Below are positions 55,278 through 58,456 of a DNA stretch of 64,000 nucleotides, piece by piece (positions within the stretch are counted from its first letter, which is position 1; each line of letters begins with the position of its first letter). Both the position numbers and the translations under genes were made by a program. Location: the NCBI RefSeq assembly GCF_053078305.1, contig NZ_CP166879.1; one strand, given 5' to 3'. The notes under the pieces were generated by a model. That model searched no databases. It saw only the letters and a list, made by a program, of their open reading frames with translations, and was not told where the DNA came from.

Positions 55278-55820
55278 ATGGCATATTTTTATTTCAAATT
55301 AGACCGTGTGCAGACAAATAAATATTTCACCAAATATCAACAGACTGTTTTACCGCTACGCAACAGTATTCTTCGGGCATTACTGAAAAATACAGGCGCT
55401 GCCGGATTGCGCTTAAAGCCGTTTGCCATGGACGTAATCAGTGAGTTTTATTTTTCTGGTACTCTGCCTGCGGGCTGGCGTAAGCGCGATGATGTGGCTT
55501 TTATCGGGGACGGACCGTGCTTTATTGCCAGACCTGATGAGTCATGCCCTGAAGGACCGGCGATTGCCGCAATGATTGAAGCCGCTGAACGCGAGTTAAG
55601 AAAGCGTCCTGATTTCCTTGTCTGGCTCTGTGAAAAGCTGGGGGTAATGAGAATCCCCTCCATGTTTAACATGGACTCCTGGTGGACCCCGTCGCTCTCC
55701 CGTGATGCCCTGTGCGTGGTGTTTAAAGTAGGCGCTTATGGCAGGGAAATAAAAGGGGGTATTCCTGAAGAATGCCAGGAGATTAAACATTCTGAATATG
55801 TGGCGCTGACGGAGGAATAA
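55278..55820 (+). CDS. Hypothetical early protein
   Basis: 180 aa. Confidence 0.4.
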   Translation: MAYFYFKLDRVQTNKYFTKYQQTVLPLRNSILRALLKNTGAAGLRLKPFAMDVISEFYFSGTLPAGWRKRDDVAFIGDGPCFIARPDESCPEGPAIAAMIEAAERELRKRPDFLVWLCEKLGVMRIPSMFNMDSWWTPSLSRDALCVVFKVGAYGREIKGGIPEECQEIKHSEYVALTEE

Positions 55821-55823
55821 TTC

Positions 55824-56357
55824 ATGATTGATGCAAAAGTGCTTGAAGGGGTTAAAAACTGGCTGAGTATTTACGGGCGTCTGACCTGCGGAGTTCTGGC
55901 TGAAAAAATGAATATGCCGCCATCCTCGATGGTTTATTTTCTGCGTGATGCGGTTGATGCCGGGGTGCTGACGGAATGTAACGGTTTTTATGATATTCCG
56001 CGTCCCCGCCCGGTGCAGCCGGTTCGTCGCAAATGCAGCCAGGAGTCTGCGGCTGATGATGTTCAGTGGTGCAGCTTCAGAAAATCCCTGCCGTGGATTG
56101 AGGGGCATGATATTCCGTCGATGGCGTGGGAATTTGCTCAGGGCATACTGACCTGTGAAACCGTTTATGTGGTGGCTGAAGTTGATGAGCAGGCCATGAA
56201 AGAAGGCGTGCCCCAGTTTGTGATGGCGTATATCGACATACGCCTGGGTGTCATTATCTGCGGTTTAAGCGGCTGGAATATCACCTCGCGCGTTCTGCGT
56301 TACCTGATTGTTGACCGGACGGCCGCGCCTGCCGGGATATCTGCGGAGGTGGCGTAA
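55824..56357 (+). CDS. Hypothetical early protein
   Basis: 177 aa. Confidence 0.4.
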   Translation: MIDAKVLEGVKNWLSIYGRLTCGVLAEKMNMPPSSMVYFLRDAVDAGVLTECNGFYDIPRPRPVQPVRRKCSQESAADDVQWCSFRKSLPWIEGHDIPSMAWEFAQGILTCETVYVVAEVDEQAMKEGVPQFVMAYIDIRLGVIICGLSGWNITSRVLRYLIVDRTAAPAGISAEVA

Positions 56358-56872
56358 TGTTCTTTAAAACATCAAACCCTTCCGCGCTGGCCGCGTGGCA
56401 AAAATATCAGCAGGACTGCCAGAAAGTTAAGGATGAGGCAAAACGCCTTGAGGCCGTGCTGAATGTTGCGTGCCGGTCGGTATTTGTATCCGGTATCAGT
56501 GGCTTTTGTTTTAAAGGGCTGCGCTTTATGGATGACAAATATCCTTTTCATCGCGACTTATGGCGAAAACCGACTGCGTCGAATGGCTGGAGCTGCACAC
56601 CGCGCACATCACGTATTCCCAAAGCCCTGCGCGTTGCCTCTGACGAACTTAACAGTCTGTGGCGTGAATATTCGCCCGTCACGTATGCCAGAACCGATGC
56701 ACTGTTGTTCTGGCTGGGTATTGATTTCTCGGCAATCATGTTTGGCCCTGTGAAGTGGTTCTGCGTTGACGATGTGATTTACCTTGAGTGCGGCGTAAAA
56801 CCCGCAAATCAGAAAATGACCGAAATTCTGTCTGATGAGTTTTATGCTGCTGAAAAGCGAGTCAGGGGGTGA
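56357..56872 (+). CDS. Hypothetical early protein
   Basis: 171 aa, coupled. Confidence 0.4.
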   Translation: MFFKTSNPSALAAWQKYQQDCQKVKDEAKRLEAVLNVACRSVFVSGISGFCFKGLRFMDDKYPFHRDLWRKPTASNGWSCTPRTSRIPKALRVASDELNSLWREYSPVTYARTDALLFWLGIDFSAIMFGPVKWFCVDDVIYLECGVKPANQKMTEILSDEFYAAEKRVRG

Positions 56873-56875
56873 TGT

Positions 56876-57427
56876 ATGATGATTTTACAACCCATGGGGC
56901 GAAAAGGTCAGGCACCTGCTCATGTCCGTGCGTGGACACCTGAAGAAGATGCGCTGCTGATTGCGCTTTATCCATCCACCCCGGTTAAGGATATTGCTGT
57001 CAGGGTAAAAAGAAGTTTCTGGGGTGTACATAACCGGATTGTTTTATTACGCGGTACTTACCCGGAGTTGCTCAAATGCAAACGTCCAAGATTTAAACAT
57101 GATGAAGATAAATTTATCCGAAAAAATGCCAGAACGATGACCGGTAAGCAAATAGGAGAATATCTGGGGCGAGACCGGGATTCTGTCCACAATCGGGCGC
57201 GATATATTGGCGTAAGCATGAAAAAATACGGAGAATTGCTGCCCTTCACCCGTATACCTGACGATGATGTTCATCTTATTCGTGAATTACGGGATGCTGA
57301 ATCACCACGACGTCTTACCTTCCGGGAAATAGGCGAGAAATTTGAATTATCCGAGAGTACGGTGAATTTTATTTATCACCATCGCCGGACTGCCGAGGAC
57401 GCTGTATTACGGGAGTTAACGCCATGA
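56876..57427 (+). CDS. Hypothetical early protein, possible DNA-binding
   Basis: 183 aa; WTPEEDALL motif and basic C-terminus. Confidence 0.4.
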   Translation: MMILQPMGRKGQAPAHVRAWTPEEDALLIALYPSTPVKDIAVRVKRSFWGVHNRIVLLRGTYPELLKCKRPRFKHDEDKFIRKNARTMTGKQIGEYLGRDRDSVHNRARYIGVSMKKYGELLPFTRIPDDDVHLIRELRDAESPRRLTFREIGEKFELSESTVNFIYHHRRTAEDAVLRELTP

Positions 57428-57609
57428 TAAAGAGACTTGTATTTTTCGCAATTTTCGTTCCGGTGTTGGGGGTTGGTTTTATATTTGCGATTACAGGAAA
57501 CCTGTCCATGATGCCAGATATTTGGTTCTTTATCAGGATGTCGCTCTTCCTGTTTATTATGAATCTTCTTATCGACATATATATCCGTATTACTGGAAAA
57601 CATAAATGA
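57424..57609 (+). CDS. Small membrane protein
   Basis: 61 aa, two hydrophobic segments, AT-rich. Confidence 0.35.
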   Translation: MIKRLVFFAIFVPVLGVGFIFAITGNLSMMPDIWFFIRMSLFLFIMNLLIDIYIRITGKHK

Positions 57610-57980
57610 GAAAAATCACGTCCTTGTCAGAGTTACAGGAGATGAATATGAGTATTGAATTAAGATCGTCTTATGAGTATCGCAAATTTCTTATCGCCGG
57701 AGGCATGAAACCGGAAGATGTGGAAAAAATCGTTTCTTTTATGGATAAGGAATGTGACAAGCGGGATGTGTCAGAAATTATTATGGATGACATGATTCTG
57801 GATTCAGTCGTGGCGTTAAGTCCGTTATGGATTGTGCATTCTCTTGCGGAAATTGCCAAAGGCACCGATAAACAGGCAGCTGTTGCTGCCCTTCAGACGC
57901 TTAATGAAATGCGTATATCTCCACGCCCGACATTAATACAGATGATTTTGTCCAGTATGGAGGATAAAGCAAATGAATAG
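57606..57980 (+). CDS. Hypothetical protein
   Basis: 124 aa. Confidence 0.4.
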   Translation: MRKITSLSELQEMNMSIELRSSYEYRKFLIAGGMKPEDVEKIVSFMDKECDKRDVSEIIMDDMILDSVVALSPLWIVHSLAEIAKGTDKQAAVAALQTLNEMRISPRPTLIQMILSSMEDKANE

Positions 57981-58170
57981 TCTACCCGCTGGATGGGCGC
58001 GCCCTCTGATGGCTAAGAAGCATCATTTTTTTAAAACTGGCGATAATATCAGTATATGTAGGCGGTGGTTATATCTGGCTCATAATCGCGAGCCGGATAC
58101 ATTTGAAAGCCCTGATGACTGTGCCGAATGTCGCAGAAGACTGAATAAGGAGAAAGATAATGGACAGTAG
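57973..58170 (+). CDS. Small Cys-containing protein (possible zinc ribbon)
   Basis: 65 aa; C..C...C..C spacing. Confidence 0.35.
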   Translation: MNSLPAGWARPLMAKKHHFFKTGDNISICRRWLYLAHNREPDTFESPDDCAECRRRLNKEKDNGQ

Positions 58171-58456
58171 TTCGCAGTTGTTCTGGTGTTTATATATCAC
58201 ATCGTTTTTCGGTGCATTCGTCATTACACGATGGCTGTGCCGGAAAGTTATCAGTATTTTTCATAAAAAATACCTGATTGGGCTGGCGGCGACTTCTCTG
58301 ATTAATGCACTTGCCAGATATCATAAGGGGGAATACTACTCAAGAATAAAAACTGATGATGGTTTTAATATTTTTGTGATTCCTCCGGAGTATCGGGTTC
58401 AGCTCGATCGGGAAAGTAATATCTATCATATCAGCAGGAGTGTTGATACAGCATGA
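58160..58456 (+). CDS. Small membrane-anchored protein
   Basis: 98 aa, N-terminal TM, AT-rich. Confidence 0.35.
   Translation: MDSSSQLFWCLYITSFFGAFVITRWLCRKVISIFHKKYLIGLAATSLINALARYHKGEYYSRIKTDDGFNIFVIPPEYRVQLDRESNIYHISRSVDTA

Follow-up and report, generated by a model that had tools for sequence, protein, structure and literature searches.

Conserved module and variable low-GC tail in the distal early region of an Sp18-type Mu-like prophage

Phage Mu's semi-essential early (SEE) region is non-essential and holds accessory functions (PMC4553209), and prophage Sp18 of Escherichia coli O157:H7 Sakai has been reported as Mu-like, seemingly intact and not induced by mitomycin C (PMC2669165). Here we describe a block of eight open reading frames (ORFs), O1 to O8, located between gam and gemA in a Mu-like prophage whose left part occupies the region from ~49 kb to the end of a 64,000-nucleotide (nt) stretch of DNA (RefSeq assembly GCF_053078305.1, contig NZ_CP166879.1; hereafter the window). 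Comparative analyses indicated that the block is the distal early, or SEE, region of an Sp18-type Mu-like prophage and that, as judged from sequence comparisons, it is composed of a conserved module, O1-O4, and a variable tail of low G+C content (GC), O5-O8. To our knowledge, even in phage Mu the genes of the gam-gemA interval have never been assigned functions. The eight ORFs are the following (positions are those of the window; aa, amino acids):

55278-55820, plus strand: O1, 180 aa
55824-56357, plus strand: O2, 177 aa
56357-56872, plus strand: O3, 171 aa, start sharing 1 nt with the O2 stop
56876-57427, plus strand: O4, 183 aa
57424-57609, plus strand: O5, 61 aa
57648-57980, plus strand: O6, 110 aa, revised start (57606 and 124 aa in the preliminary description)
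57973-58170, plus strand: O7, 65 aa
58160-58456, plus strand: O8, 98 aa

The same eight genes were found in Sp18, named 'Mu-like phage', as ECs_4953-4959 and ECs_5772. Gene order, gene lengths (543, 534, 516, 552, 186, 333, 198 and 297 nt) and the gam and gemA flanks were all the same, while the differences were allelic only (92.8% nucleotide identity without gaps); all eight are recorded in Sakai as 'hypothetical protein', names that add no function. The block was 99.6% identical to the prophages of STEC2017-197 and O157:H7 NE 1092-2, and it was found in 261 of the 5426 complete E. coli genomes (~5%) and also in Mu-like elements inserted into Shiga toxin (Stx) phages. Public collections already contain the exact sequences of all eight proteins, under the names hypothetical, 'Mu prophage protein' (O3) or 'AsnC family/DNA-binding protein' (O4), and four of the sequences occur on at least 1000 contigs each. 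The genes had been called uncharacterised in a preliminary description of this DNA, and this holds, no ORF having a known function.

Both the position and the content of the block agree with an SEE region. The gene order in this part of the window is a Ner-like gene, A, B, five small ORFs, gam, the eight ORFs, gemA, a Mor/C-family gene and a lysozyme gene, on the plus strand throughout, so that the block lies downstream of A and B and upstream of the Mor/C activator and lysis genes. Homologues of Mu SEE ORFs are present, namely those of gp11 (O2), gp12 (O3) and, more loosely, gp9 (O4). The start of gemA shares 4 nt with the stop of O8, and gemA is the final gene ahead of a terminator-like hairpin. 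The flanking features are the following:

50184-52292, plus strand: transposase A
52364-53296, plus strand: transposase B
54650-55180, plus strand: gam, left flank of the block (Pfam Phage_Mu_Gam, 1.5e-41)
58453-58962, plus strand: gemA, right flank of the block (Pfam GemA, 5.4e-30)
58967-58990: terminator-like hairpin between gemA and the Mor/C-family gene, 9-bp stem followed by the T-rich tail TTATTTT
59032-59457, plus strand: Mor/C-family gene

Comparison with the gam-gemA interval of Mu (gp11-gp15) revealed the same early-operon position, with gp11 and gp12 as the equivalents of O2 and O3, and a gap of ~97 nt after gam that carries a hairpin common to Mu and the block. On the contrary, the Mu interval holds five genes, one of them on the opposite strand, and is without O1, O5, O6, O7 and O8, so that five of the eight genes differ. 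In Mu the gene for the gp9-type helix-turn-helix (HTH) protein, which is half as large as O4, lies upstream of gam, and gemA overlaps mor in Mu while the terminator-like hairpin separates the two genes here.

The order O1-O2-O3-O4 was kept in E. coli and Salmonella Mu-like prophages. The Salmonella homologues (DUF5420, Gp11_C, Phage_Mu_Gp12 and a 183-aa HTH protein) showed identities of 30%, 61-68%, 48-56% and 53-55%, respectively, that of O4 being present at two of the three loci, and the same hairpin was found upstream and gemA downstream. These prophages differ from the block in carrying DUF3164 in place of gam (loci ~2197-2835), immediately upstream of the hairpin and the module, and in having other small genes between the HTH protein and gemA. 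Phage SfMu has O1, O2, a frameshifted O3 and O6, while the Yersinia Mu-like phage vB_YpM_3 has O1, O2 and O6 and is without O3. Since gp12 is frameshifted in SfMu and absent from vB_YpM_3, both of which are isolated phages, these comparisons suggest that gp12 may be dispensable, and the absence of O5-O8 from the Stx1_JNE122137 element is indirect evidence of the same kind for the tail. The gp12 homologue of SfMu (SfMu locus 3577-4078) is split over two reading frames and unannotated, being either a pseudogene or a sequencing error.

Among prophages with flanks of 94-100% identity, the tail, by contrast with the module, was replaced by other genes, interrupted or present as divergent alleles. 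In the Mu-like element of Stx1_JNE122137 O5-O8 are absent and a Mu-type set, including gp13/gp14-type cassettes, stands in their place; this set encodes a protein of 110 aa, a zinc ribbon of 46 aa and a protein similar to gp14, and it also has an ORF on the reverse strand. Stx2c_JNE082796 carries three extra genes inserted between O5 and O6, and its O8 allele is 51% identical overall and near-identical over the first 30 residues (ratio of non-synonymous to synonymous substitutions, dN/dS, 0.19), the C-terminal part of O8 being strongly divergent between alleles. Within the module, O4 of FORC_069 was 72% identical while its neighbours were 94-99% identical. Analysis of base composition showed that the GC of O5-O8 is 0.36-0.45 as compared with 0.52-0.56 in A, B, gam and gemA. 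The alignments indicate that the pattern of O5-O8 is the mosaic expected of an accessory hot spot, with exchange at gene boundaries. The preliminary description had taken the whole block for an accessory region, which is apt for the mosaic O5-O8 but not for O1-O4, a conserved module with gp11 and gp12 orthologues.

Of the four large proteins, two are related to each other, as far as profile comparison can tell. O3 is an orthologue of Mu gp12 (BLASTP, 54% identity, E 4e-68, over 169 of 171 residues), and Pfam PF26885, Phage_Mu_Gp12, is recorded on O3 homologues of 48-56% identity, the homology being full-length. An exhaustive HMMER search gave 91 cluster representatives of the O3 family, mostly full-length and of ~165-190 residues, with W69, G121 and E156 invariant and a conserved C-terminal helix. 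O1 matched phrog_2260 (1.7e-74), and its homologues in SfMu, Yersinia Mu-like phages and Salmonella (38-40% identity) are annotated as DUF5420. The Pfam DUF5420 model (PF17457) did not reach its gathering cut-off on O1, which gave no Pfam match at E<=1, while relatives of O1 at 24-40% identity match DUF5420 or carry that annotation; O1 is therefore a divergent DUF5420 relative rather than a formal member. Alignment of the O1 and O3 family profiles with hhalign gave a probability of 91% and an E of 1e-6, end to end over 156 columns, and brought the conserved Trp, the Gly and the C-terminal helix ('E-I-x-x-S-E-[FY]-x-A') of the two families into register. A relationship between O2 and O3 was rejected (hhalign probability 0.6%), and this comparison doubles as the negative control for O1 and O3. 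The profile evidence thus indicates that O1 and O3 are distant paralogues.

The O3/gp12 protein was predicted to have an alpha/beta fold with a predicted local distance difference test (pLDDT) score of 96.6. The fold search of the PDB revealed no solved relative of O3, and among the BFVD models the named viral matches were all uncharacterised or generic. Relatives of O3 lie in hypothetical-gene clusters of Klebsiella (Lastavirus), Vibrio, Acinetobacter and Pseudomonas phages, and the DUF5420/gp12 superfamily reaches, by fold, phages of actinobacteria. The genomic neighbours of gp12-like genes in these other phages gave no functional clue. The superfamily of O1 and O3 has a confidently predicted, phage-specific fold without a solved relative.

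O2 is an orthologue of Mu gp11 (67% identity) and the sole member of the eight found in every relative examined. It matched Pfam PF25754, Gp11_C, at 9e-40 and 135.3 bits, above the cut-off of 27, over positions 1-78 of 78. Its family has 222 members, the best 120 of which were all at least 60% identical, and among the matches listed the named sources were E. coli or Salmonella. In the AlphaFold model of O2 (overall pLDDT 63) a unit of three helices forms the N-terminus, and a disordered linker joins it to a C-terminal alpha/beta domain that is better defined. The fold search with this model matched only a generic winged-helix domain, with no match for the Gp11_C domain. The N-terminus of O2 is accordingly a predicted winged-helix HTH ahead of the linker and Gp11_C.

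O4 is basic (isoelectric point, pI, 9.9) and matched phrog_323, 'transcriptional regulator, D5-like' (6e-59), while its best Pfam HTH matches stayed below threshold (1.1e-4, 19-22 bits as compared with cut-offs of 24-27). An internal repeat of a Myb/SANT-like unit was detected (E 0.003), giving two repeats and a C-terminal HTH, and residues 66-168 aligned with Mu gp9 (E8) at 30% identity (E 5e-10). Homologues of 53-55% identity occupy the same position in the Salmonella prophages; no PDB sequence match was obtained. O4 is probably a DNA-binding protein and an enlarged relative of Mu gp9 (E8), in agreement with the preliminary description, which had named 56876-57427 as a possible DNA-binding protein. 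The same description had seen no other recognisable motifs in the block apart from a Cys-rich 65-aa ORF; this holds in part, since O1 is a divergent DUF5420 relative, O2 has a Gp11_C domain and O3 is a gp12 homologue over its full length.

Among the tail genes, O5 (GC 0.355) encodes two hydrophobic transmembrane-like segments, with a Kyte-Doolittle 19-residue maximum of 2.79 and 19 windows above 1.6, and it matched phrog_19804 (1.3e-5; dN/dS 0.15-0.26). The N-terminus of O8 (GC 0.40; phrog_17269, 9e-66) holds a conserved hydrophobic segment, a probable membrane anchor with a borderline Kyte-Doolittle maximum of 1.43. Two AT-rich membrane-anchored proteins had been proposed for the block, and O5 fits that proposal well while O8 is a borderline case. 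O6 is acidic (pI 4.8, the lowest of the eight), was aligned from residue 15 with phrog_1988 (5e-44), and its homologues, of 37-42% identity, are SfMu gp14 and proteins from a Yersinia Mu-like phage and a Salmonella prophage. O5 and O6 were also considered as counterparts of Mu gp13 and gp14, and this was rejected for want of similarity. The PHROG families of O5, O6 and O8 are all of unknown function.

O7 matched phrog_2358 (2.6e-33) and belongs to a family of 62-72 aa whose named sources include Escherichia, Salmonella, Citrobacter, Klebsiella and other enterobacterial genera. Alignment of 18 sequences revealed that H17 and H18 are invariant and that C29, C50 and C53 are nearly invariant. O7 had been called Cys-rich; it has only three Cys residues, these nearly invariant ones. 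These His and Cys residues may form a zinc site; no Pfam zinc-ribbon model matched O7. In a Salmonella Mu-like prophage an O7 homologue directly precedes GemA, and in a Klebsiella phage one precedes a DNA methyltransferase gene; a non-Mu temperate phage has a further one within its early operon. O7 travels as a cassette among temperate-phage early regions, and the genomic neighbours of O7-like genes in other phages gave no functional clue.

The eight ORFs were confirmed as genuine genes rather than chance reading frames. A GGAG-like Shine-Dalgarno sequence lies ahead of each of them, the junctions within the block are tight (-11 to +3 nt, with the exception of 38 nt ahead of O6), all eight matched a PHROG family (E 1e-5 to 5e-105), and the same eight coding sequences (CDS) are present in the RefSeq annotation of three independent genomes. 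Comparison with diverged alleles indicated purifying selection, with a dN/dS of 0.07-0.30 for O2-O8 and of 0.62 for O1, the latter from only 16 differences. All eight ORFs of the preliminary description were found again on the plus strand between Pfam-identified flanks; coordinates and sizes were unchanged for seven of them, while the start of O6 is most probably the ATG at 57648 rather than 57606, because this is the RefSeq start, the PHROG alignment begins at residue 15 and the relative with the upstream insertion has its gene start there. Scanning the inside of the block revealed no convincing promoter or terminator (best match 7-8 of 12), and neither a sigma-70-like promoter nor a terminator brackets O5-O8. 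An antisense ORF of 170 aa (55596-56108, minus strand) lies opposite O1 and O2 and is probably spurious, since the forward frames are annotated and under purifying selection. Although O1 (180 aa) and O2 (177 aa) are unrelated, their exact sequences were placed in a single protein cluster at 90% identity, probably an artefact of clustering due to a gene call that was fused or read through.

On its upstream side the block is bounded by a stem-loop that was better conserved than the flanking genes:

55221-55249, plus strand: stem-loop GGCGC-TC-GCGTCAGGGGAC-TGTCT-GCGCC, in the 97-nt gap between gam and O1 (55181-55277)

Ten loci, from Sp18-type, Mu, SfMu, Yersinia and Salmonella prophages, were aligned and shared 30 invariant columns, and the stem-loop was kept from Mu to the Salmonella prophages even where the flanking genes differ. 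The cells of the stem were paired in 96% as compared with 31-55% when the partners were slid, and one compensatory pair change, C-G to U-A, was found in the Salmonella lineage. The 12-mer GCGTCAGGGGAC occurs singly per locus, always at the stem-loop, and once in 50 kb spanning all of Sp18. The stability of the fold was not unusual (z-score 0.13), and neither an Rfam match nor a T-run was found. The promoter scan of the AT-rich stretch upstream of the stem-loop, in the gam-O1 gap, gave a best match of 7-8 of 12, which is weak. The stem-loop could serve in the processing or stability of RNA, or it could bind a protein.

Some observations concern the neighbourhood of the block. The Mor/C-family product resembled Mu C (38.7% identity, E 3e-30) more than it did Mu Mor (26.8%, E 3e-11), and the phage appears to have a single Mor/C-type activator instead of two, because the lysozyme gene comes directly after the Mor/C-family gene. 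The small early ORF at 53521-53787 showed 67-74% identity to proteins of Salmonella prophages to which Pfam Kil_protein (PF26843) is assigned and is probably a Kil homologue; tblastn against Mu DNA gave no detectable match for this ORF. Another mosaic patch of the early region is the small ORF at 54318-54638, upstream of gam, which was 63% identical in FORC_069 while its neighbours were 91-99% identical. The Mu left-end sequence was looked for across the window and did not occur.

The best explanation of the block as a whole, which we hold with slightly better than even confidence, is the SEE-region anatomy described above together with early accessory functions of the eight genes. The block is co-directional with A, B and gam, and the overlapping junctions and the lack of internal promoter- or terminator-like sites suggest that the eight genes would be transcribed with the transposition genes on derepression of the prophage. 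Their products would then be non-essential accessory proteins, each acting separately and not as one machine. O2 and O4 would bind DNA; O1 and O3, with their phage-specific fold, would bind proteins; and O5 and O8 would act at the membrane. Of the classical Mu functions that would map to this interval, the poorly defined enhancement of Mu replication ('arm') is the one for which O1 and O3, together with O2, would be the foremost candidates, and it is likewise the leading candidate role of the module. The variable tail may target the envelope or strain-specific host factors, in exclusion, host takeover or counter-defence. Such roles have an analogy in Tip of D3112 and Aqs1 of DMS3, reportedly host-takeover or anti-host proteins from the early regions of Pseudomonas Mu-like phages, which may serve as a lead in that they too would be small early-operon accessory proteins of transposable phages acting on host targets.

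Several points weigh against this explanation. The function of all eight genes is an inference, neither experiment nor homology assigning one to any of them, and their co-transcription from the early promoter is a prediction from sequence. The overall confidence of the O2 model is low (pLDDT 63), the HTH assignments of O4 fall below the Pfam thresholds, and the stem-loop ahead of O1 could point to a separate transcript, or to processing at this site. The mapping of 'arm' between gam and lig/gem presumably follows the older Mu literature; among the papers searched, none was found on DUF5420, on the function of Mu gp11 or gp12, or on 'arm' mapping. In the AcrIE9 preprint Mu serves only as a test phage.

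Other explanations were weighed against the same evidence. That some or all of the eight proteins inhibit host anti-phage defences, being made early before replicative transposition, we consider possible although rather unlikely. The block is located in an early operon adjoining the known nuclease inhibitor Gam, the turnover of O5-O8 in near-identical prophages resembles that of arms-race loci, O4 (72%) and O8 (51%) have divergent alleles between flanks that are 94-100% identical, and O3-type proteins also occur in hypothetical-gene clusters of Klebsiella Lastavirus and Vibrio phages. On the contrary, when the eight ORFs were scanned with Pfam, PHROGs, NCBIfam and PADLOC, all matches were to families of unknown function, apart from the generic HTH signals of O4, PDB sequence and profile searches with O1, O2, O3, O4, O6, O7 and O8 gave no match below E 0.01, and no similarity to defence or counter-defence proteins was found in PADLOC, NCBIfam, PDB sequences or PDB folds. 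None of the eight proteins is strongly acidic (lowest pI 4.8), which argues against an acidic DNA mimic of the Ocr/ArdA kind. O1-O4 are conserved in E. coli and Salmonella under purifying rather than diversifying selection (dN/dS 0.2-0.3), and the alternative cassette genes that replace the tail in relatives are likewise unknowns with no PADLOC match. The preliminary description had proposed the block as a likely place for novel defence inhibitors; for this proposal there was no direct support, and what speaks for it is a guess from position and the turnover of cassettes. The remote-homology and structure searches that it had suggested yielded the predicted gp12 fold, a predicted winged helix and the O1/O3 paralogy and no function. 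The eight genes are not all conserved Mu-core genes of known function, so that the anti-defence idea is not refuted on that ground. A bolder proposal, in which DUF5420/gp12 proteins are a new class of early effectors that bind and neutralise a conserved host factor (a defence component or a brake on replicative transposition) and the hairpin is a new cis-regulatory RNA governing the expression of the module, seems to us unlikely.

O5-O8 might instead be lysogenic-conversion morons that aid the host, for example in superinfection exclusion through O5 and O8, which would agree with their low GC as compared with A, B, gam and gemA, with the hydrophobic segments of O5 and O8 and with the cassette-like presence or absence of the tail. 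We judge this improbable: no sigma-70-like promoter or terminator brackets O5-O8, and their starts overlap preceding stops while O8 overlaps gemA, so that the tail is built into an early operon repressed in the lysogen. O5, O7 and O8 are short (61-98 aa), AT-rich and without a Pfam family, as chance reading frames in a spacer would be. Such an origin is effectively refuted, since each has a PHROG match (1e-5 to 9e-66), a Shine-Dalgarno sequence and a RefSeq annotation, the frames are intact in diverged alleles with a dN/dS of 0.07-0.26, and the His residues of the O7 family are invariant and its Cys residues nearly invariant across genera. The SEE-region explanation with early accessory functions is thus the one that we retain.

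Beyond the database annotations consulted, the analysis adds the O1/O3 paralogy, the predicted gp12 fold, the predicted winged-helix N-terminus of gp11, the division into module and tail, and the conserved hairpin. To a phage specialist none of these results will be surprising by itself; the block is an ordinary accessory region of a known prophage type. The module/tail split, the O1/O3 paralogy and the two candidate DNA binders are nevertheless testable targets. Many carriers of Sp18-type Mu-like prophages are Shiga-toxin-producing strains, and it is the early accessory genes that decide the replication efficiency of such an element and its effect on the cell.

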